This document shows, one piece after another, positions 1-21,730 of a DNA stretch of 64,000 bases. Position 1 is the stretch's first letter. Each line of letters starts with the position of its first letter. Source of the DNA: a virus (Duplodnaviria > Caudoviricetes); the IMG/VR virus record IMGVR_UViG_3300048998_000202; one strand, 5' to 3'. Both the position numbers and the translations under genes were made by a program. A model generated the notes under the pieces. That model was not told the DNA's origin. It ran no database searches and was given only the letters and a program-made list of their open reading frames with translations.

Positions 1-116
1 CCACCCGGAGGTGATCCCCTTCTCCCTGCCGTGCCTTACCCGGCCCTGCCTAGCCATGCCACACCGCACCACGCCCCGCAGGTCTTGACGTTATCAAGAC
101 CCTTCGGAGCCGTCAA
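1..116 (-). ncRNA. GGY-NN pentamer guide-like RNA unit A with own promoter (3' end runs off the window)
   Basis: Minus strand: TTGACG-17 nt-TAACGT, then caagacc-tgcGG and 10 perfect GGY-NN pentamers (ggcgt ggtgc ggtgt ggcat ggcta ggcag ggccg ggtaa ggcac ggcag), then the start of a GC hairpin. Confidence 0.8.
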
Positions 117-120
117 TGAC

Positions 121-248
121 GAAGGGGCCCTCCGTAGAGGACCCCTTCTCCTATGCCAAACCTAGCCATACCCTACCCTGCCACGCCAAACCTAGCCAAG
201 CCATGCCCTGCAAGACTTGACTCTGTCAGCTCCTACGGCATCTGTCAA
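121..248 (-). ncRNA. GGY-NN pentamer guide-like RNA unit B
   Basis: TTGACA-17 nt-CAGAGT promoter, leader caagtcttgcAG, 11 perfect GGY-NN pentamers (207-153) and terminator hairpin GAAGGGGTCCTC-tacg-GAGGGCCCCTTC. Confidence 0.82.
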
Positions 249-253
249 CGACG

Positions 254-353
254 GAGGGGCCCCACCGTAGTGGAGCCCCTCTCCCATGCCCGGCCTTACC
301 CAGCCCTGCCTTGCCTCACCTCGGCCAGCCGTACCGAGACCTTGACTGTATCA
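254..353 (-). ncRNA. GGY-NN pentamer guide-like RNA unit C
   Basis: TGATACAGTCA box just after the stop codon of the 357-1226 gene, 10 pentamers (335-286, one variant gccga) and hairpin GAGGGGCTCCAC-tacg-GTGGGGCCCCTC. Confidence 0.78.
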
Positions 354-356
354 GGA

Positions 357-1226
357 TCAGTAGAACCGGGACCAGTACCGGGGCCGCGCCGCCACCGAGC
401 CCGCCATGCGGGTAGGCCCGTACCTGCCGTAGACGCCGCCCGAGATCAGGACGGCCGGGCGTCCGAGACCCATCTGGCTGATCTTGAAGACATCGAGCTG
501 GGACTTGGCGGCCTGCTCCTCCTCCATGAGGACGTCCCGCCAGCGCTGGACGTAGTCCCGGCGGTCCAGTCGGGAGACGTTGCCGGAGCCCTGGAACATG
601 GGCTGCTCGGTGTAGGAGCGGATCAGGTGCTTGAGGGTCTCGATCCAGGTCATGGCCTCCAGCAGCGGGCCCCACTGGGGATAGGGGAACTGCGCTCCCC
701 CGTCGCCGTCCACGGTGAAGGTCTGGAAGGGCTGCGCGATGGTGTTCATGCGCCCGAGCGCGATGCGCATCAGTTCGGCGATCCGGCCCCGGCCGAACTT
801 CGACTGGACGTAGGTCGTCAGGTTGGGGCCGCCACCTGGGGAGTCGATGGTGTCGGCGATGCGGACCATGACGCGCTCGATGATGTCTTTCATCGGGACC
901 ACCAGGCCGTCGTACGACGGGGCGGCCGGGCCGATCTCGATGCCGGACTCGTAGTACTCCTGCTGACCGGTCAGCAGGTATGTCCAGGCCAGGGTGTAGG
1001 AGCCCGGGACGGAGGTCTCCACGCTGTTGAAGGTCGCCGAGTAGTCGCCGGTCGCGTTGTGGGTGGCCAGCCGGGAGAAGATCTCGTTGCCGGTGTTCTC
1101 GGAGACCATGGTGAGGGTGACCCCGGCGTCGGCATCTATCGGGACCTGGTTCTGGAGGATCTTCAGTCCCACCACGTCCACGGCGTACTGCGATACGTAC
1201 TGCCGATCGTTCCAGTACAAGGCCAT
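357..1226 (-). CDS. virion structural protein, probable head-tail connector/neck
   Basis: 289-aa ORF with phage-like codon usage, in the late operon downstream of the capsid genes. Function inferred from position only. Confidence 0.55.
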   Translation of the reverse strand: MALYWNDRQYVSQYAVDVVGLKILQNQVPIDADAGVTLTMVSENTGNEIFSRLATHNATGDYSATFNSVETSVPGSYTLAWTYLLTGQQEYYESGIEIGPAAPSYDGLVVPMKDIIERVMVRIADTIDSPGGGPNLTTYVQSKFGRGRIAELMRIALGRMNTIAQPFQTFTVDGDGGAQFPYPQWGPLLEAMTWIETLKHLIRSYTEQPMFQGSGNVSRLDRRDYVQRWRDVLMEEEQAAKSQLDVFKISQMGLGRPAVLISGGVYGRYGPTRMAGSVAARPRYWSRFY

Positions 1227-4077: not shown

Positions 4078-4614
4078 TCAGTCGCGCTCGCGGTTGCCGA
4101 TGTTCACTCGGACCCACTTGGTCTTGGCCTGCTCGCCCGTGGTGTCCACCTCCGGCACGTACTGAAGCGCGAGCCCCTTGTGGCGGGGGCACAGCGGGGG
4201 GATGTCCTTCAGCAGCTTCTCGGAGATGGCCACGGCTTCTTCACAGGTACCGATGCCCCGCGAATCCGGGCCGACGCAGAACGCGCTGACGGTGTCCCGG
4301 CTGGTCGGCTTCTCGATCGTTGCCTGGATGTTCTCCTTGGCCCCGTCCTGACGCCGACGGAAGGCGTCCACCTGACGGCTCAGAGCCTCGACCACCTCGG
4401 GGTCGGACTCCTCGTCCATCAGCTCCACGACGCCACGGGCCAGGGCGCGCTTGAACGCGACCGACTCCAGGACGGCTTCGGGGATGTACTGGATGTCGTC
4501 TCCGGAGGGGTCGCCGCTGGCGGCCCACTCCACGGAGTGGGTCCCCTTGACGTCCGAGGCGAGGACGGTGACGCCGTCCATCAGGTTGCGGGCAACGATC
4601 GAGCCGACAGGCAT
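4078..4614 (-). CDS. hypothetical late protein with C-terminal Cys/His (Zn) motif
   Basis: 178-aa ORF behind the late promoter motif at 4642-4676. Confidence 0.6.
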   Translation of the reverse strand: MPVGSIVARNLMDGVTVLASDVKGTHSVEWAASGDPSGDDIQYIPEAVLESVAFKRALARGVVELMDEESDPEVVEALSRQVDAFRRRQDGAKENIQATIEKPTSRDTVSAFCVGPDSRGIGTCEEAVAISEKLLKDIPPLCPRHKGLALQYVPEVDTTGEQAKTKWVRVNIGNRERD

Positions 4615-4855
4615 GAGGGTCTCCGTTCGTGAAGGTCTTCTCGTCCTTTACGCGGAGTCGTCACGGGTCCAACAGGAAAGGCCCCGGCCCGGGGGTACCG
4701 GGGCCAGGGCCTTTCGTGGACGATCGGCGCCACGACTCAGGTCCGTGGGGGACGGAAGGAATCGGCGCCGCCTCGTGCACGGGGAGCGTGGCACGGTGGG
4801 GTAGACGCTGTCAAGGCGAATGTGTTCCACTGGAGAGATGGAAGATCAGCACACG

Positions 4856-5077
4856 ATGCAGACAGACACCCCCACCGACGACCTGAAGCTGTACGGGATC
4901 TCCGAGCTGGCGGATCGCTGGAAGGTCTCTAAGCAGCGGGCTGACGAGATCGCCTCCAAGCGCCTCCCACAGCCCCTCACGCTCAAGATGGGCCGCATCT
5001 GGACAGAACTCCAGGTGGAGAACTTCGAGAGAGGGTGGGTCCGTAAGACGGGGCGTCACATCGTCCCCAGGACTTGA
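4856..5077 (+). CDS. small AlpA/excisionase-like HTH DNA-binding protein
   Basis: LYGISELADRWKVSKQRADEI...LPQP..LKMGRIW is an AlpA-like wHTH pattern. Start could be 4838. Lies directly upstream of the RNA array. Confidence 0.7.
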   Translation: MQTDTPTDDLKLYGISELADRWKVSKQRADEIASKRLPQPLTLKMGRIWTELQVENFERGWVRKTGRHIVPRT

Positions 5078-5163
5078 TATCGTCAGGGGTTACTGGGCTC
5101 GGCAGGGCTAGGTAGGGCAGGACTGGGCACGGCATGGGAGGGGCTTCCTACGGGGAGCCCCTC
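5075..5163 (+). ncRNA. GGY-NN guide-like RNA unit D
   Basis: TGATATCGTCA box, pentamers 5096-5135 (one variant gactg) and hairpin GAGGGGCTTCC-tacg-GGGAGCCCCTC. Confidence 0.75.
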
Positions 5164-5168
5164 AGCCG

Positions 5169-5262
5169 TTGACAGGCGCTCTTGGGAGTGACAGAGTCAG
5201 GTCTTGCAGGACCACACGTGGGCGTGTGGAGAAGGGGCGCTTCTTCCAGGAGGCGCCCCTTC
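5169..5262 (+). ncRNA. array unit E: same promoter/leader but hairpin body instead of pentamers
   Basis: TTGACA-17-CAGAGT, caggtcttgcag, hairpin CCACACG-tggg-CGTGTGG and terminator GAAGGGGCGC..GCGCCCCTTC. Confidence 0.6.
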
Positions 5263-5267
5263 GTCGT

Positions 5268-5422
5268 TTGACAGACCGGCACGGGGGTGACAAAGTCAGG
5301 TCTTGCATGATGGGAAGGACACACGGTTGGTTTCTGAGGCCGGAACCGTGTGGATGCGATCGGCCCTCAAGGCCGTGGACGCGTCCGAAGGCCCCCTCTG
5401 AAGATTCCTGGAGGGGGCCTTC
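5268..5422 (+). ncRNA. array unit F: same promoter/leader, two-hairpin structured RNA
   Basis: TTGACA-17-CAAAGT, caggtcttgca, stems CACACGGTT/AACCGTGTG and GGATGCG..CGGCC/GGCCG..CGCGTCC, then terminator GAAGGCCCCCTC/GAGGGGGCCTTC. Confidence 0.6.
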
Positions 5423-5428
5423 GTTCGT

Positions 5429-5557
5429 TTGACCGGACGACATTAGGGCTGACAGGGTCAGTTCTTACAGGGCACCGTCTGGTTGGGCACGGTAAGGCAT
5501 GGTGGGGTAAGGCACGGCTGGGCAGGGGAGGGCGACCATCTTCGGATGGTCGCCCTC
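5429..5557 (+). ncRNA. GGY-NN guide-like RNA unit G
   Basis: TTGACC-18-CAGGGT, 11 pentamers at 5471-5525 (one variant cgtct) and a UUCG-capped terminator. Confidence 0.8.
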
Positions 5558-5563
5558 AGCCGT

Positions 5564-5706
5564 TTGACAGGTGCGGGTGGAGCTGACAGAGTCAAGTCTT
5601 GCAGGGCCGGGCCCGGTAGGGCGTGGTTTGGCGTGGTGTGGTTGGGCAACGCATGGCATGGCATGGCAGGGGAAAGGCCCCAGGATTTTAAAATCCTGGG
5701 GCCTTT
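5564..5706 (+). ncRNA. GGY-NN guide-like RNA unit H
   Basis: TTGACA-17-CAGAGT, 13 pentamers at 5605-5669 (one variant cgcat) and terminator GAAAGGCCCCAGGATTTTAAAATCCTGGGGCCTTTC. Confidence 0.8.
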
Positions 5707-5708
5707 CG

Positions 5709-5841
5709 TTACGCCCTGAAGGAACTGATAGAGTCATGGTCTCGGCAGGCCGAGGCTAGGTAAGGCACGGCGGGGCAAGGCACCGCCCGGTAGGGCAAGG
5801 CATGGGGAAGGCCCCCTCGGATTCTCCCGAGGGGGCCTTCC
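5709..5841 (+). ncRNA. GGY-NN guide-like RNA unit I (decodes to major capsid gene motif)
   Basis: TGATAGAGTCA box, 12 pentamers at 5744-5803 (variants gccga, cgccc) and a terminator convergent with the capsid gene. Confidence 0.82.
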
Positions 5842-5866
5842 GTTGTCCTGAAGCGACTACTCTCCG

Positions 5867-6856
5867 TCACGCCTTGGTGATCGTCGCGATGCCCCTGGGG
5901 TTCAAAATGGACATATTGACCATTTCGTCAAATACCCATCCCTTCCAGAAGGCTTCGACCATGTGGTTCTCTTCCACGTCCAAACTGTACAGAACGGGGA
6001 AAACGCCCAAGAAGTTGGGCTCCGGGGTGAGGAAGACCTTGCCCTGCGGGACGATGATCGACCGCTGGATCTGGAACTCGCCGAACGAGGTGATGGTCTC
6101 GCCCGCGACGACCCGGTCCTTGAAGGCCCAGCCCGTCTGGTTGATGTCCCACCGGTACAGGTCCCGGAAGTCGAACGGGTTGATCAGGATCCGCGCCGAC
6201 TGGAGCTCGTGCATGTCCGTCATGGCGACGGCCGAGTACAGCGAGCCCGGCGTCAGGTAGCCCGACGCCTCGGTGATGTTGTGGTTCGGGGTGACCGTGT
6301 GGTCCGGGCGGGTGGCGTAGTCCGTCAGCGCCGCCTGGAGCAGTACGAGCAGCCGGGTGTCCTCCTGCTTGAGGATCGCCTGCTTGGTCTCGTCCTGGGC
6401 CTGCTCGACTGCGTTGATACGCAGGTAGAACAGGTCCTCCTTGCGGATCGCGGGGCGCGAGGCGATACGGAAGAACCGCACCGGAACGCGCTTGCCCTCG
6501 AACGGAGTCACACGGACTTCGCCCTCGGTGCCGGACATGATGTACGCCTGGCCCAGGTCGTCCCACACGTCGTACTCGACGGGGGTACCCGGGGTGACCG
6601 GGTCCTCCACGAGCACGTTGCGGGTGATGCCCTGGTAGCGGAGCTTGAGCTGGATGGGACCGACCATCCCGACGCCCAGACGGCGGATGCCGCCGGTCTC
6701 GTCGGAGAGGATCAGCGCCATCTTCTTGACCTTCGCCTCATGCGTGAGAGGCGCGGCCTTCTCCCGGCGGGCGAGGATCGCGGAGGCGTAGTCGTCGGAC
6801 TTCTTGGCCACACGGCCACGGAGCGACGAGGTTGCGGCGAGAGTCTGAGTCGGCAT
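5867..6856 (-). CDS. major capsid protein (HK97 fold)
   Basis: 329 aa with capsid-like sequence (GPIQLKLRYQGITRNVLVED, QAILKQEDTRL, C-terminal ILNPRGIATI). Follows scaffold and decoration genes. Confidence 0.85.
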   Translation of the reverse strand: MPTQTLAATSSLRGRVAKKSDDYASAILARREKAAPLTHEAKVKKMALILSDETGGIRRLGVGMVGPIQLKLRYQGITRNVLVEDPVTPGTPVEYDVWDDLGQAYIMSGTEGEVRVTPFEGKRVPVRFFRIASRPAIRKEDLFYLRINAVEQAQDETKQAILKQEDTRLLVLLQAALTDYATRPDHTVTPNHNITEASGYLTPGSLYSAVAMTDMHELQSARILINPFDFRDLYRWDINQTGWAFKDRVVAGETITSFGEFQIQRSIIVPQGKVFLTPEPNFLGVFPVLYSLDVEENHMVEAFWKGWVFDEMVNMSILNPRGIATITKA

Positions 6857-6866
6857 CAGTCAGCTC

Positions 6867-7391
6867 CTAGTACTTCTGACGAAGGCCACCGATGGTGATC
6901 TTCGTGGCGGAGTTGACCTTGAGGAGCCGGGCGACCGGCTGCACCGTCAGAGCGGTGACGACGCTGCCGTTGGTGGCCAGCGCGAGCTTCCCGCGACCGG
7001 TGCCGGTGGCGGCGCCGTAGATGAGCGTCTCGGTACCGTCACCCGGCTCGGTCCAGCTCTGGGTGGATTCGAAGGCCGGGGCGAGGATCTCGAACTCGGC
7101 GTCCGGGGCGAGCTTCCACACCGCGAAGGTGTTGATGCCCGACTCCAGTGGTTCGTCGATGCCGTCGCCACCCACGTACAGGGCGCCCAGGCCGTAGGGG
7201 ATGCTGCTGGTCGCGCCCACGAGAGACACGTTCTCCCCGGCGGTCTTCATGAAGACCATTCCCGGCCAGATCGGGACACTGCGGTCCCAAGCGGCGTCCA
7301 GGAAGCAGCTCGCGGGCGTGGATTGGGTCCAGCCGTAGAGCGGTCGGATCGTGCGCTTGATGTACGACGTTGCCATCTTCGTACGAAGCAC
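6867..7391 (-). CDS. capsid decoration/cement protein (putative)
   Basis: ~175-aa beta-rich ORF between scaffold and capsid genes. GTG start after GGGAGGGG. Confidence 0.6.
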   Translation of the reverse strand: MLRTKMATSYIKRTIRPLYGWTQSTPASCFLDAAWDRSVPIWPGMVFMKTAGENVSLVGATSSIPYGLGALYVGGDGIDEPLESGINTFAVWKLAPDAEFEILAPAFESTQSWTEPGDGTETLIYGAATGTGRGKLALATNGSVVTALTVQPVARLLKVNSATKITIGGLRQKY

Positions 7392-11500: not shown

Positions 11501-12327
11501 TCCCAGGACAGGCCCCGCCCGGCAGTGGTGTTGATGGAGTCAAGACTTGCGGTACTCTGGATCTCGCTCGGCTCGGCTCGGATTGGCTTGGTTGGGCTTG
11601 GCACGGCAAGGTACGGCATGGCATGGGTGGCGGTCTCTCCGGAGGCCGCCACAGCCATTTTCATACCCCGGTCATCGATCCCGGTGAAAAACGCCGTCGG
11701 ATCCGCCGGGGGCTCCACCAGCAGCGAGTTCTCGAAAAACCGCAATCCGTAGCAGGTCTCACGGATGATCTCGCCGATCTTCTGCCCGGAAGCCGTCGTC
11801 CGGTAAAGCGTCATTCCCTTTGATCCAGGGATGTGGGCGCAGTATTCGGCAGGGGTAGTGGCCTTGTTGCCACAGGCGGAGCAGACGGAGAAGGCGACGT
11901 CGGTGCCCATGCTGGTTCTGGCGATGTTGCCGTTCATGATCTCGGCGGCCAGCTTGGGAAAGCGCAGCGCATCGACCTCTTGGAGGACCTCGACCCACCA
12001 GTCCCGGCTGCCGTCGCGGTTGCTGTCCTTGTGCAAAACCGCGTCGATGATCACACCACGGGCGCGCTTGTGATCTTCGTTCGCGTGATTGACGAAGACG
12101 GGCTTACCGATAAACGTCCGGTATCCCTTCTCCAGTTCCTCAGCGGGGAACTCGTCGAAGTTGTCGTTGCACCGGCTGGAGATGGCGCGGGAGCGCACGT
12201 ACAGGTAGCCGGGGCGCACCTCATACGAAAAGTGGTGCCGGTGGGCGAAGCGGCGCAGCTCACGGGCACCCGCGTCCGTGGGGACGAGGGCCTTGGTCAT
12301 GATCTGGGCGCTCGCGTACTTGAGCAT
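8572..12327 (-). CDS. multidomain head protein: prohead protease-like N-terminus + ParB/Srx-like + HhH-glycosylase-like + GNAT + Zn ribbons
   Basis: N-terminal GKPVFVNH..ARGVIIDA..TSMG..CSACGN..YCAHI..FFENSLLVEPPADPTA. ParB-like MPPVVLV..ADGHHR. WY..SAYSPQ..GPK..VVVDRHA..VQAVTW. GNAT RRGVASAML. Several CxxC pairs. Confidence 0.7.
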   Translation of the reverse strand: MLKYASAQIMTKALVPTDAGARELRRFAHRHHFSYEVRPGYLYVRSRAISSRCNDNFDEFPAEELEKGYRTFIGKPVFVNHANEDHKRARGVIIDAVLHKDSNRDGSRDWWVEVLQEVDALRFPKLAAEIMNGNIARTSMGTDVAFSVCSACGNKATTPAEYCAHIPGSKGMTLYRTTASGQKIGEIIRETCYGLRFFENSLLVEPPADPTAFFTGIDDRGMKMAVAASGETATHAMPYLAVPSPTKPIRAEPSEIQSTASLDSINTTAGRGLSWDEVGERHPEIYGDPEIHGDRAEHADGEMIGWAASNLAHSTPDDPDANERSIDDLTFHHAMVSPSAIDHKRHEAGDYRVQHAAEGYRDNPEQMPPVVLVHRHGVFQVADGHHRTEAAKAAGIKKIHAYVAKSPLSDTPDEYGEKAPYHGARATNWPPKAKDPGKTPEGSGYAQDRMFEAAKKDPRFAEVGLKQDGDGHFVTTHRARSKSYPTPEEIPDSVVRQIAATGSRVTLADLMAEGAAATPPEDHPWFKEMGLSHHHVVDHWDQATSEEKAQGKRWYPDAHLVAKSIAKLDPRIKSDAEAAHKGAGVLSAYSPQQGWWANQHNAARAFHEQRAVGKGEGIMVMGSHANAAQKVMDGMNHQEALKGPKTQDFASLIEHGGNKPQSPEDAAAGKPKEPSDKVVVDRHALSVAAGRRLNADDVKGFPSQNRKHYEVVANHYRKAAAVISDREGREVPPHEVQAVTWLARQRLNAEGDTSGGQKGRNTVQRNQRKTWQDLSREHNPDLHQPPANSHVAGASGDLPEGLHFTYHGGPDYKYHVLRAHTPDRQQVGKLEWTKKREEYWDEKGPDDFRPDQHCDHCGMNGHADSWHVKPAGHINWIGVDDNLKRRGVASAMLDHAAAHYDPAPVHSPFATENGKGLQTGRGATPPEDSRRLLGRKLAYGETKAPEDVDTLREDACPVCGDRDTFDGATCQVCSYVAPPKMFQDPDLEKARQMDLRKDVAEFQDPANPNQIGPDGQPVENPADPAALDENGNPVNPDAADQGQQPGTLPGEVQAEVQPGGDPMGGDSPQDPNALGPDGQPQDPNELGAPVDPAMLGPDGQPLQQPGQQMMVGPDGMPIGPQALPADAVSSDGQPFTPGPDTPQGPGQPTGPEGPAGPQDLDTDGQIPNPDAGQGVPGTPGDGVPDLECPACGFQADATNPVSVDMDTSILPPTGEATPDGVQAGDVCPNCGQGQLMSPAEEQGETPLPMPV
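11532..11652 (+). ncRNA. GGY-NN guide-like RNA unit J, antisense inside the protease gene
   Basis: TGATGGAGTCA box, leader caagacttgcgg, pentamers at 11570-11624 (one variant ggatt) and terminator GTGGCGGTCTC-tccg-GAGGCCGCCAC. Confidence 0.78.
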
Positions 12328-16112: not shown

Positions 16113-19100
16113 GTCGGGTCCTCGTCTTCGTCAAGGGCGGCGTAATGGGTGTCGGCGATGTCGAGCCGGTCCAGGTTGGCGGCCTGCACGCTCGCGCCCT
16201 CGTTGATGATCGCAGCCTGCTCGTGGGGGCTGTAGTTCTTCAGCGCCAGCTTGGAGAGCATCGCACGGGCCTGGAGTGCGATCTCGGCCCCGTCTCCGGT
16301 GCCCCGTACGGGGCTTGAGGAGCCGTCAGAGGACAGGTAGGAGGCGTGGCTCTGGAACTGGGCGATGAGGTCCTCCAGGGACCCCACAGCGGCCGTACGG
16401 GGCGGGGTGAGGGATTCGTCGTCGGTCAGGTCCAGGCCGTCGCCGTCGGTGAAGGGCAGGGCGCCTTCGGGTTCCATGTGAAGGGTGGCCTCGGCGCCAG
16501 GGGTGAGCTCCTGGTGCTCGGGCATACCGGGGTGTCCCGGGGGCATGGCGCCGCCCTCCCCTCCCTTGGGGCCGGAGGGGCGGGGCGGTCCGAATCCCTC
16601 CCCGAGCATGGAGATCGCCTCCGAGGTCATCGGGACGTCCCTCAGGGCCCGCCAGTACGCCGTCACGCCGTTCTCCAGGGGGGTGTCCTCGGTGCCGGGG
16701 CTGGAGGCCAGGGGGTCGTCGGACTGGGCGATCTGCTGGGGGATGGACGCGATCCGGTCGCCCAGTTCGTTGGGGGTGATGGATCCCCAGTTGTCGGGGT
16801 CGGACTGGGAGGCCCAGCCGGTGGAGCCGGGGTTCTCGGCGAGGTTGCGGGGCTTGGTGGGACCCGGGGTGTAGTTCGGTGCGGCCGGAGTGGGCTCTCC
16901 CCAGGGGGAGTTGATCGCGGCCTCGTGGTGGGCGCCGTCAGGGAAGTCGTGCCGCACCCAGTCCCCGTTGCCGCGAGGGCGCCAGGAAACGCCCTTGAGG
17001 TGGACGGGAGCACCGGCTTTCAGAGGGACCTCGGCGTCGTCGTGGTCACCCATGGAGATGACGTCTTGTGCGACCAGTTCTTCGGGGTCGGTCTCGATGT
17101 GCTTCTTGGCCGGGGTGTGGGCGTGCAGCACCACATGGGTGTTGTTGTCACGACTGTCGCTGACGCCTGAGTAGTGGGCGGCCTGGTCCTTGTCCGGCGT
17201 CCAGTGCGTCCCGAGTCCCTGGTCCGAGAGATGCGTCGAGAGGGCCTGGGCTCGCTCCGCGACCGGCCGGGAATCGTCGTGCACCACGCTGTGCACGTCC
17301 GACGGCAAGTGGACCGCCATGCCCCGGTGCAGGGTGTCCCCCAGGCGTGGGTGGATGGAGTCCCAGTCGGTGTAGACGGACTCGTGGGCCCGCTTGGTCT
17401 CGCCGTCGGAGTGCTCACCGTCGTAGCAGTGCTTGTTGTGGCACTGGTAGACGGGATCGCCCCATTCGTCACGGTGGAAGCGAGACCCCTCCTCGTCCTC
17501 CTCATACTCCGGTTCGTGGTGGTCGGGTTCGTCTTGCTCTTGGGCTGCCGTCAGGCCGTGCATGCCCAGCAGGAACGCGAACTCCTCGGGGTCGTGACCC
17601 TGGGCGCGGGACCACTGGGCGAGCGCCACCAGCGGAGTGACCTCGATCTCCCGGGCAGAAGACCGCACCAGCTTGTTGTCGCCGGAATCGATGTCGTAGC
17701 GAAGGACGACCTTCTTCGGCACCCACTCCGGCTTGGCCGAGTCCTCGGTGACGTCCCTGCCGAACATCCCCCGGGACTGGGCCTCGTACTGGAGGGCCAG
17801 AGCGTGGGAGCACATGCGCCCGGCGAACCGCGAGAAGTCGTCGTTGGCGCCCCAGTGGTAAGCGCCCCACTTGCAGCCGCAGGTGTACGTGGCCACCGAG
17901 TGCCGGGAGCCGGGGAAGCGCTGTACCCCGGTCTCGTAGACATGGTGGTCCCCCTGGACCTCGCCGAAGACCACGCCGTCCGAGGCGAGGGTGATGCGGA
18001 CCTTGCCCTCGGAGCGGATGCGCTTGGCCTTGCGCTGGACATCGGCCCACGCCGAGGTGAAGTGGAACCGGAACTCGGGGTCGATTCCGGCTTCGGCGAT
18101 CAGCGCGTACGGATTGAACGCGGCCTTCTTGCGGCCGTTAGTCGGGCGCCCGTCCTCGTCCCACTCGGTGCCGTCGTCATAGGTACCGCCGGAGCCCGTC
18201 ATGGCGTCGGCGTCAGTAGACCCCTGAGAGATGATCTCCTCCTCCGGGGCCTCGTCGGCTATGTCGGCGAACGAGCCGTCCTGCTGGTTGGCCTGCTTAC
18301 GCTGCACCTTCGGGGGCTCGTAGTCCTCGTCCCCCGGGTCCCGGGCCAGGCGGTGCGGTTTGGCCCCGGGGAAGAACAGGTGCTTGTGGTCGATCCAGTC
18401 CCCGACGCGCTTGACGTTGTTCAACAGCGGCTCGCCATCGTGGCCCACCCCCACCATGTGACCCTGGACGAGGTGGCCCGTCTCCGAGGGCCGGTCATTG
18501 CCGTTGAACCTGTTTCTCTCGGCACGAGCAGCCCGACCCTGCATCTCCTCGTGGGTGTCATTGCCGTACTCGTCGTTGAAGGCGTCCATATTGCAGTTGT
18601 CGTCGCAGTACTCGTCGTGCTCGTGCCCACGGGAGTAGTTCGAATCCGGGTCCACGGGGTGTCCATGGTGGTCCAGGTCGTAGACGCTGACGCCGTCTTC
18701 CTTGGCCCCGGTGACATTGTTGGTGGACCGCTCGTCCGCGCGCCAGTCCCCGAAGCGAAGGTAGGTCGGCGAGGGTTCCGCCGCTCCCAGACGACGCTCG
18801 GCGGTGCCGTAGTCGTGCAGGTTCACCGCCCCGATGTGCAGAGCACCGTCGTCGGTGACCTTGTGCACGATGCGGTGACCCCGGGACGCCTTGGTGGCGT
18901 ACCAGCCCTTCAGCGGATGCCGCAGATCATGCGTCTGAAGGTTCGGGGCCCCAGCGGCCAGGGCGTCGATGGTGGCGCCGATCTGCTTCTGGGAGGGCTT
19001 GTCGAGCTTGCCCAGCTCCTTGGCGGCAGCCGGGTGGAAGGTTACAGGCCGAGATTCAGCCGGAGCTGCTCCCACTTCACCGGGGGCTCCTGGCTGTTCT

Positions 19101-21730
19101 CCCGCTCCTGCATCGTCTTGACCAGATCCGGGTCGGGTTCGAGGCTTCCCACGACCCGCAGTCCGTCCTCCGTCATGTACGCCATGGGGCTCGCCTCCGC
19201 TCTGCTCATCAAGTCCACCCTCCAGGGTACTCCAGGAATTGTTGGGGTGCAACGTCTCCACGAAGGCACCCTCGGCCGACATCTGCCCGTAGTGCGACCC
19301 GTCCACCAGGTGGTGGTGGGTGTACTGGCTCGGGTACGACGGCGGGTACTGGGTGTCCGGGTCGGCCGCGCCCTCGGCCCACGAGATGCCGTGGTGCAGG
19401 CCGCCGTTGCCCTCGTGGCCGTGCAGGATCACGTGCGTGGGCGGGTGCGGGTGCGCCCCCTGCTCGTGCAGGGCGTCCGCATCCACGTCCGCGTCGATCT
19501 CCGCGTCGGAGGGGTCCTCGTGGTCGTCGTTGAACAGGTGCGCGTTGCCGACCTTGGAGTACAGGTGCCGCGCCCGATCCACCATCGGCTTGGACTTGTC
19601 GTGGACGAAGGCGTGGTCCTCGGGGCTCAGGTGCACCGCCGCGCCCGTGTGGGTCTCCGGGGCGGGCTTGGGCTCCAGCAGGTGCACGCCCTGCGCCTGG
19701 TGCTCCTCCTGGAGGGCCTGGGCGTCGGAGTGCGAGACGTGCTCGCCCGAGGGCAGGTGGAAGTCCGCCTTCTTGATCGGCGGCCCGTGGTAGCCCTGCT
19801 CGTTCGGGTCGTTGTGGTCGGTCCACACGTGCTCGCCCGGCACGTGTGCGGTCAGCACCGGCCAGTCGTTCTCCGGGTCGTTGTCGTTCGCGGCGTGCTC
19901 GTGGGCGTAGTCGGGGCTGGTGGAGACCCAGTCGCCCTTGTTGATGTCGTGTATCCCGTGCGGGACGGCCCGGTAGATCTGGATGTGCCCGTGGTCCCCG
20001 AAGTGGCTGTGGCCCTCGTCCGGACCGGGCGCCTGGTGCATCATCGAGTACTCACCGGCCGTGACGTGGTGCGCCCAGGGGGCATCCGTCTCCCGGCCCT
20101 CGTGTCCCCACACCGGCTTGGACACCGCCGTCACCCCTGTGATGTGCACCGGAGCGCCCGTACGGACCGTGCGCTCCTGCTCGTGGCCACCGTCGAAGAT
20201 CTCGTGCTGATCAGCGTAGTCCTGCCACTCCGGAGTGCCGTGCTGCACGACGTGCTCGGGATCCACCCGGCCGTGCAGGATCACCCCGTGGGTGTGCGGG
20301 GTGGCGTCGTCCTCGTCCTCCTCGTGGGCCAGGGCGAAGTTGTGCGAGGTGTACGGGTCGGTGGACCAGTGGATGCCCGCCTCGTGCCCCCGGAAGCCCT
20401 TCTGGTTCAGGTAGCCGACCGGATCGGCGTGCAGGCGCTCCACGTCCTCGTCGCTGGCCAGCCCCAGGTTCAGCCCCCGGTGGACCTCCTCGCCGCCGAC
20501 GGAGCCGTGGACCGTACGTCCCTTCTGCACAGTCTTGCCCCGGGTGTAGCTGTCCCACCACGCCTTGCCGTCGTTCGTACGCTCGCCGTGGTCGATCGCG
20601 TGGGGGTGACGACGCTGCATCTCATCCATGAGTGCGGACGCGACCCCCTTGCCCCGGTGCGCCTCGGCAGTGTCGAGACCCTCCACCCGGACCTTCTGGT
20701 TCTTCTTGAACGGCACCAGGTAGGTCAGCGTGCCCATGTGCTCGCCGGTCTCCGGGTGCAGCGCGTGGAGCTTGACCCTGTCGTCGAAGGTGCTGCCGCC
20801 ATAGTCGGCGGTATCGGCAGTGAAGGTCGGCTGCACCTTCTCGGCCGCCGCGTATTTGGCTACACTCGCAGTACCCCGAAGAAAGGCGCTGTCGTGGCCC
20901 GCTCCCCCATGCCCATCCTCGAACGCTTCCTGAGCCACGTCGATGCGTCGCCTGATCCCGAAACCTGCGACATGTGGAACGCCCGGACGAACCGCCTCGG
21001 GTACGGCCAGTTCTGGGACGGCACCTACACCGCCTCCGAACGCCCCCGGATGGTCGATGCCCACCGATGGATCTACCTCCACACCCATGGACCCACGCGC
21101 CTGCATGTACGCCACACGTGCGACATACGCGCCTGCGTCAAGCTCGGGCATCTCATATCCGGCACCCAAGCCGACAACATGCGAGACCGCGACTCCCGAG
21201 GCCGGGGCGTCGTACCCGACATGCGGGGTTTCGCCCGAGGCCACGGCACCAAACTCACCGCTGAGCAGGTGCTGGAGATTCGCACTCGCGCCACCGGCCA
21301 GTGGGGAGAACAGCGCCGCCTCGCCCGGGAGTTCGGAGTGGGTCATCAGACCATCAGCGCGATCCTCTCCGGAAGGCGCTGGGCGGAGTGATCCCATGTG
21401 GACGGGCAGCGCGATGTCGGGCCTGTCGCGCAGTACGTCCGTGAGTTCTTCGTAGTCCTCAGAGGCCAGATGCCCCCCTGCCGCCTGCCGGGTGCCAGTG
21501 GAGTACGGAGAGAGCTGTGAAGGCCCGTACAGGCCCCGTCCAGCCCCACCGTCCAGGATGACGTCATACTCCTCCCCCAAGGCCGGGGAGTAAGTGACCT
21601 CCTCCACCCGCCCGGGGATCCCGTCAACCGTCATCACCCGCTGACCTTGGGAGTACTCGGTGGGGTAGTCCCCCGCCGCCATGCGCGACAGCGCGGTGTC
21701 GTGTGCGCTTTCGCGGCGTCCCAGCCCCAT
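16103..21730 (-). CDS. giant virion cargo/effector polyprotein (GNAT, three ADP-ribosyltransferase-like modules, RelE-like domain, SWIM Zn finger)
   Basis: [19 protein letters not shown]-like HRG..GIHWSTD..EQE, IYRAVP..GDWVSTS..EQGY and LHRG..GTHWT..DAEV. RelE-like [33 protein letters not shown]. Late promoter at 21750-21784. Confidence 0.7.
19042..19209 (-). CDS. overprinted antitoxin-like peptide (55 aa) in an alternative frame of the polyprotein
   Basis: Own TTGCAC/TACCCT promoter with operator (19224-19252) and GGAGG RBS. C-terminus [12 protein letters not shown] ends at the start of the RelE-like domain. Confidence 0.7.
20894..21391 (+). CDS. HNH homing endonuclease nested antisense in the polyprotein gene
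   Basis: [40 protein letters not shown], followed by [29 protein letters not shown] and TACACT -10 upstream. Start may be ATG 20909. Confidence 0.85.

Follow-up and report, generated by a model that had tools for sequence, protein, structure and literature searches.

A phage repeat RNA beside the major capsid gene is probably aimed at sibling capsids and would spare its own copy by codon-family swaps

The DNA considered here, called the window, is a phage segment of 64,000 nucleotides (nt) with a GC content of 66% (Duplodnaviria; Caudoviricetes; IMG/VR record IMGVR_UViG_3300048998_000202), and our subject is a small repeat cassette within it, guide I, together with the major capsid gene that lies beside it. 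Eight cassettes in the window share a common layout, in which a -10-like box (GAYAGAGTCA) and a short leader are followed by 8-13 pentamers of the form GGY-NN and by a tail made of GGGAR and a hairpin. Three of them lie at 1-353 on the minus strand, four at 5086-5845 on the plus strand, and one at 11570-11624 on the plus strand inside an open reading frame (ORF) of 1251 amino acids (aa). The sequence TTGACA is often found 17-18 nt upstream of the -10-like boxes, and a consensus promoter scan called no promoter, despite the conserved -10-like box that is visible. An Rfam scan of 4500-6500 gave nothing close to any gathering score, and a megablast of 4800-6900 against phage records was without a match. 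The features are collected in Table 1.

Guide I consists of the units GGCAG, GCCGA, GGCTA, GGTAA, GGCAC, GGCGG, GGCAA, GGCAC, CGCCC, GGTAG, GGCAA and GGCAT, from which the dinucleotides (NN) AG GA TA AA AC GG AA AC CC AG AA AT are read. GGY is present in 10 of the 12 units, the exceptions being GCCGA and CGCCC. Across 50 guides of the phage family, GGC or GGT is constant and the NN positions carry an entropy of ~3.5 bits per unit. The exception is the last unit, which has 1.35 bits and reads GGCAG or GGCAT in 45 of these 50 guides, and which is for this reason assigned to the scaffold. Every complete cassette has the hairpin tail, the stem sequence of which differs from cassette to cassette; for guide I, the RNA of 5738-5850 folds at -66.6 kcal/mol (z = -3.6). 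The non-GGY unit GCCGA is kept in four cassettes, namely guide I (5738-5757, plus strand), cassette C (286-335, minus strand) and two cassettes of the related IMG/VR locus L005. The leaders of the cassettes that bear it contain GGTCTC and could form an 8-bp 5' hairpin with the GCCGA unit (GGUCUCGG/CCGAGGCU).

Table 1. Guide cassettes, the capsid gene and its target site, and an example of the Cas4-like gene. Coordinates refer to the window unless a locus is named.
Feature	Coordinates	Strand	Remarks
Guide I, box and leader	5726..5743	+	-10-like box (GATAGAGTCA), common to all eight cassettes; putative promoter
Guide I, vrRNA variable region, 12 GGY-NN pentamers	5744..5803	+	last unit (GGCAT) is constant scaffold
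Guide I, 3' tail: GGGGA, 15-bp hairpin, short T-containing stretch (terminator-like)	5804..5845	+
Codons 281-292 of the own capsid gene (NFLGVFPVLYSL), self counterpart of the guide I target	5981..6016	-	18/24 match
Major capsid (head) protein gene, 329 aa	5867..6856	-	phrog_2522, E=2e-102
Sister cassettes D, G, H	5086..5720	+	pentamer runs 5096-5135, 5471-5525, 5605-5669
Cassettes A, B, C	1..353	-	oriented towards vipr and vap, predicted just outside the window
Guide J	11570..11624	+	antisense within the 1251-aa ORF; matches 12074-12105 of the same gene, 17/22
Cas4-like gene, example	L204:1018-1806	+	loci L203-L246

When the plus strand at 5982-6016, inside the capsid gene, is read two bases on and one base off, it gives AA CT TA AG AC GG AA AC CC AA AA TT and agrees with the NN string of guide I at 18 of 24 nt, with seven perfect pairs, exactly as a first-pass annotation made from the letters alone had claimed. 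No other site on either strand of the window scores above 15. The site lies 179 nt from the guide and in codon register, the skipped bases falling on the third positions of the capsid codons. Read as codons, the reverse-complemented NN string fits the capsid motif NFLGVFPVLYSL at 11 of 12 positions, while the next best fit in six frames is 7. Outliers appear at a skip of 1 nt only, for guide I and for guide J, which finds the peptide KPVFVNHANED about 450 nt away in its own host gene at 17/22 nt and 8/11 residues (next bests 15 and 5). With skips of 0, 2 or 3 nt, and discounting that the guide trivially finds itself at a skip of 3, guide I scores at most 16; these models, which gave no outliers, were set aside. 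The same was done with the idea that the Y of GGY is a third pairing base, for the third codon positions that it implies disagree with the capsid codons. When the NN order of guide I was shuffled 3000 times, a window maximum of at least 18 had a probability of 0.013. This value is modest when taken alone; it is proximity and register, the 11/12 peptide fit and the alike behaviour of guide J that make chance untenable.

Four disagreements between guide I and its own capsid gene fall, as had been claimed, on six-fold codons: Leu283 (TTG), Leu289 (CTG), Ser291 (AGT) and Leu292 (TTG), where the guide reads CT, TT, TC and CT, respectively. A fifth mismatch concerns the last guide unit (AT against AA).

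The GGY-NN architecture and its pairing code are already published. In a VIPR system the gene for Vipr, a RAMP protein of ~20 kDa, and an accessory gene, vap, lie next to vrRNAs in which 9-16 GGY/NN repeats are followed by a conserved, structured 3' tail, with a pseudoknot in the SUSP1 clade (bioRxiv 10.64898/2026.04.26.720920, 10.64898/2026.04.26.720927 and 10.64898/2026.10.15.759431; hereafter the VIPR preprints). Each Vipr protomer sequesters one GGY, and the exposed NN dinucleotides pair with double-stranded DNA (dsDNA) with every third base skipped; this 1-nt skip is an experimentally established rule for vrRNAs (bioRxiv 10.64898/2026.04.26.720920). The skipped base is mostly the wobble position of a codon, either strand can be targeted, and a protospacer-adjacent motif (PAM) is absent. 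The result is repression of the transcription of competing phages and satellites, which gives VIPR a role in inter-phage conflict. Filament assembly, the 1-nt skip, dsDNA binding and repression were demonstrated in E. coli and Pseudomonas systems, and examples of type II, with Vipr, vap and vrRNAs, are found in Escherichia phage SUSP1 and a Pseudomonas fulva prophage (VIPR preprints). The wobble-skipping reading that the first-pass annotation proposed for guide I is the same rule, and hence it is real without being new.

The lineage of the window phage also has a Vipr homologue. In the locus L011, whose capsid is 96% identical, a 193-aa ORF at 17963-18544 (plus strand) directly follows six cassettes and matches the SUSP1 Vipr protein (PDB 36pp, E=4.5e-40). 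It is followed in turn by a 187-aa ORF at 18584-19147 (plus strand), and a search by sequence found no solved relative of this vap-like ORF. On another contig, a protein identical to the 289-aa product of 357-1226 (minus strand) of the window is followed by a gap of 580 nt and then by genes for 192 and 196 aa, a gene layout that would place vipr and vap just beyond the left edge of the window. Taken together, the 12 GGY-NN units, the hairpin tail, the outlier at a 1-nt skip only, the published architecture, the Vipr of L011 and the matching gene layout mark guide I, on sequence grounds, as a VIPR vrRNA. About 400 homologues of the L011 Vipr, of 190-200 aa, were found in metagenomes, including Streptomyces and Gordonia records. 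In L001, L003, L004, L005, L011, L020 and L023, vrRNA cassettes of varying NN content lie immediately 3' of the capsid gene, which makes this region a hot spot; most other relatives have none there. Two earlier ideas on the cassettes, a sponge RNA for a TRAP-like ring protein and quadruplexes formed by the GG tracts, were dropped given the gapped matches and the VIPR literature.

What would guide I be aimed at? The capsid protein of the window has ~60% aa identity to the capsids of Mycobacterium, Gordonia and Rhodococcus phages of ~135-165 kb, for example Myrna and Catera, and is 83-99% identical to those of 80 IMG/VR loci, which together with the window's own make up the 81 capsids compared here. 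All 80 relatives retain the motif NFLGVFPVLYSL, one position of which is either V or I, and its commonest codon string, AAC TTC CTC GGC GTC TTC CCG GTG CTC TAC TCC CTC, matches guide I at 22/24. Among the relatives a score of 22 is reached by 33 loci, 21 by 17, 20 by 25 and 19 by 5, while the own gene, with 18, is the unique minimum. Over the 11 informative units the relatives have 18-21/22 (21/22 in 33 of the 80) and the own gene 17/22. Self hits with an NN match of at least 80% were not found in the VIPR surveys, and natural targets of at least 80% lie in competing elements (VIPR preprints). By this 80% threshold of the VIPR authors, 75 of the 81 capsids count as targets, with matches of up to 92%, and the own copy stands at 75%. 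The prediction that an alignment of relatives would show CTN and TCN codons and a close gapped match was thereby borne out. About 390 guides from 135 loci, plus window guides A-D, G and H, were searched in 2.2 Mb of DNA at both nucleotide and peptide level, and the only conserved multi-locus targets belonged to guide I, its ortholog in L005 and one guide of L023. A search for further phages with guide I or the L023 guide gave only L005 and the contig of L023 itself in IMG/VR, and a metagenome scan gave nothing.

The first-pass annotation further held that the own gene is immune through a synonymous recoding of the target. Codons of the minority family for Leu, Ser and Arg occur in this gene of 329 codons only as TTG at 283, 292 and 318, AGT at 291 and AGG at 321, which bears out the statement that TTG and AGT are rare in it. 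The target has four six-fold codons, and three of these five are found there (hypergeometric P=8e-4, gene-wide). The gene itself is a mosaic. Codons 1-270 are closest to L001-L003 (92-97% at the nt level), and codons 271-329 and the downstream cassettes to L005 and L004 (88-90%). L005 has an ortholog of guide I along with the shared 3' tract, its cassettes and capsid 3' end being collinear with those of the window phage. Between these two phages the Leu codon family differs at just three of 29 Leu codons, and these are 283, 289 and 292 (chance ~1/3654). The guide of the window phage expects CT, TT and CT at these codons, which is the haplotype of L004 and L005, while its gene has TT, CT and TT. 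L005 keeps the CT/TT/CT haplotype, and its guide is altered at units 4, 10 and 11 and disagrees with its own codons 283 and 289. At Ser291 both genes have AGT and both guides read TC. Since the window phage has swapped codons in its gene and L005 has altered its guide, the two reach a poor self-match by different routes.

An independent replicate is provided by L023. One of its guides is a sense-orientation read of a different capsid motif, KEDLFYLRIN, and 68 of the 81 capsids match it at 18/20. The copy of L023 itself is the unique minimum (16/20), through Leu142 (TTG) and Arg146 (AGG), and two of the three codon-family differences between the L023 gene and that of its nearest relative lie inside the KEDLFYLRIN target. 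In both the window phage and L023 the guide that targets the capsid is the cassette, or array unit, nearest to the capsid gene.

A number of observations weigh against self-tolerance by recoding, or against the VIPR assignment as a whole, and several of them are expected if guide I is real and aimed at the capsids of relatives while the own mismatches are neutral variation from a recombinant 3' tract with low GC at third codon positions (GC3), self-tolerance being reached otherwise or the partial match being harmless. All five minority codons lie within the last 47 codons (283-321), in a tract of lower GC3 (0.73-0.87) whose nearest relative is not that of the rest of the gene. When only the last 60 codons are considered, the target is not enriched for swaps (P=0.5). 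TTG318 and AGG321 are variants shared by the lineage. Many Ser columns are commonly polymorphic between TCN and AGY, and codon 291 is AGY in 30 of the 80 relatives. Population-wide, the target columns are not enriched in codon-family polymorphism and behave like other Leu/Ser columns. There are, in addition, points that concern the pairing itself. A perfect 22/22 capsid target occurs in none of the 80 relatives; an rG-dT wobble, if tolerated, would raise the own match to 20/24; and the own mismatches cluster at the 5' end, where unit 2 is the non-GGY GCCGA that can pair with the leader. If units 1-2 were unread, self and non-self would differ by one base. These units match the majority of relatives at 4/4 bases, which suggests that they are read. 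Finally, tblastn found no vipr gene in the window (best E=5.2).

The neutral explanation is nonetheless judged unlikely. The window phage and L005 share the very tract that it invokes, and the only Leu-family differences between them are those at the three Leu codons of the target, in anti-phase to their own guides; L023 repeats the pattern at another motif that lies outside any 3' tract, and in these two independent cases the own copy is the unique minimum. The proposal that codon-family recoding would confer self-immunity is supported by the Leu difference between the window phage and L005 and by the L023 replicate, and is limited by the frequent AGY at codon 291 and the missing enrichment within the last 60 codons.

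The capsid gene is not the only candidate target. In the sense orientation guide I spells SDYKTGKTPRK(M), the SDYKTGKTPRKM motif of a PD-(D/E)XK Cas4-like exonuclease of 257-280 aa, and it is conceivable that this is the selected target in other phages, with the capsid resemblance collateral and the own capsid recoded or merely tolerant. The match is not one to be set aside lightly. Perfect matches to the 11 informative units were found at 16 IMG/VR loci, none of them capsid; ten contigs (43-45% GC) have 24/24, the last unit included, and seven more (40-44% GC) have 22-23/24. All are in frame in an ORF that matches PF12705 (E=2.5e-32), and by our own estimate, made with no tool, 22 specified bases should find ~0.001-0.01 chance matches in the collection. 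A looser scan with the motif core brought up 44 contigs with this nuclease family, at 40-54% GC, and none was GC-rich. Against the nuclease stands its setting: its contigs, at 40-45% GC against 66% here, are unlikely to share a host with the window phage, they are without arrays, and other guides of the phage family have no match above background on them. The Cas4 genes of GC-rich Gordonia and Mycobacterium phages reach just 17-18/24. The capsid match, on the other hand, is adjacent to the guide, is better kept by the L005 ortholog than the nuclease match (22/24 and 21/24, respectively) and is paralleled by a second capsid guide. We therefore regard the Cas4-like match as a probable coincidence and, going by the sequences, give the nuclease a small chance of being the real target.

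The position of guide I could also point to a role at home. It adjoins the capsid gene and is convergent with it, and the own match still amounts to 75%, as might be the case if guide I tuned the expression of its own capsid gene through a partial match. Partners that co-evolve in this manner should match best, and the own copy is the worst of 81; the absence of strong self hits from the VIPR surveys likewise argues against autoregulation, which we consider very improbable.

The reading that we prefer is that guide I is a VIPR vrRNA aimed at the capsids of sibling phages, with self spared by swaps of codon family at Leu and Ser, and this is probably correct. In closely related co-infecting phages, guide I would direct the complex to the major capsid gene at codons 282-292 and block capsid production, so that the capsid genes of rivals would be silenced during co-infection. 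The own capsid gene would escape because Leu283, Leu289, Ser291 and Leu292 use the six-fold family opposite to the one read by the guide, which leaves 17/22 on self; five mismatches in 22 would then suffice for immunity. Guide and immune allele would travel together as one module, in the manner of a poison and its antidote, and this linkage would be selected, as it would be suicidal to part the two.

Compared with VIPR type II, to which it is closest, the system described here has the same GGY/NN pentamers (9-16 units), followed by a 3' tail that may be structured alike, the same 1-nt skip at the wobble base with targets on either strand, and, in a close relative of the window phage, a Vipr of ~190 aa with clear sequence homology. 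It, too, would act against competing mobile elements, and both keep the self match below 80% NN. The carrier, however, belongs to a clade of GC-rich actinobacterial phages whose capsid resembles those of Myrna and Catera; every cassette comes with a promoter-like box and a plain hairpin tail of its own, and the cassettes are scattered, one even lying within a gene. The published targets are a satellite recombinase and prophage regulators, whereas the target here would be the major capsid gene of siblings, a homologue of which the carrier keeps, unmatched through six-fold codon-family swaps. With the Cas7 backbone of class 1 CRISPR-Cas systems VIPR shares RAMP protomers that polymerise on a guide RNA and periodically interrupt its pairing, and in both self must be spared. 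VIPR differs in having no repeat-spacer array, adaptation genes, PAM or repeat-flank check, and in pairing in 2-nt blocks with three guide bases sequestered; here, self would be spared by the sequence divergence of the self gene rather than by flanking context. The likeness to poison-antidote modules (toxin-antitoxin, restriction-modification) lies in the tight linkage of a weapon against relatives to an immunity allele, with separated recombinants penalised. The antidote in our case would be a synonymous allele of an essential structural gene instead of a separate gene, and the linkage advantage is one that position and mosaicism point to.

Several other features of the cassettes deserve mention. 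At 5162-5440 (plus strand), two units between the sister cassettes share the promoter-like box and the leader of the cassettes (GACAGAGTCAGGTCTTGCAG) and end in strong hairpins, but have no GGY repeats; these may be decayed cassettes or other small RNAs. The 1251-aa ORF that hosts guide J has a protease-like N-terminus and DUF7178. In relatives guide J scores 15-18, and its own mismatch is non-synonymous, with Ala (GCG) where the guide reads AA; it ends in two GGCAT units, of which just 1/4 NN bases is matched in any copy examined. In some relatives (L023:11056-11449 and L020:11051-11266, both on the minus strand, as well as L035 and L045) the guides form one continuous array without an intervening promoter or hairpin, in which a GGCA step of 4 nt separates the runs of ~9-12 pentamers and changes their phase. 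These may correspond to the 'staggered arrays' named in the VIPR paper.

It is argued in the VIPR preprints that, under the skip rule, synonymous changes offer a target no effective escape, and the six-fold codon-family route is unmentioned there. Measured against these preprints, novelty seems to lie in three points. The first is the occurrence of VIPR in actinobacterial phages of high GC content, with the major capsid gene of siblings as its likely target; the second is the tolerance of self, and by extension the escape of targets, via six-fold codon-family swaps; and the third is the anti-phase evolution of tightly linked guide and allele. In two independent guide-capsid pairs Leu/Ser/Arg family swaps lower the match, which suggests that guide-carrying phages use them to retain their own homologue of the target. 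In a broader sense, we lean slightly towards a picture in which VIPR-armed phages wage allele-specific warfare on the essential structural genes of their siblings, immunity and escape both passing through Leu, Ser and Arg codons, and in which guides and linked immune alleles co-evolve in anti-phase; such selfish killer-immunity modules would leave their mark on the codon choice and the mosaicism of phage capsid genes. If true, this would supply a rule for self/non-self discrimination by VIPR and would make the sites of escape mutations predictable, with Leu, Ser and Arg codons as the weak points in guide design. It would also extend the targets of VIPR to core structural genes of near-identical rivals, and offer a selective explanation for the rare codons and mosaic ends of phage capsid genes.
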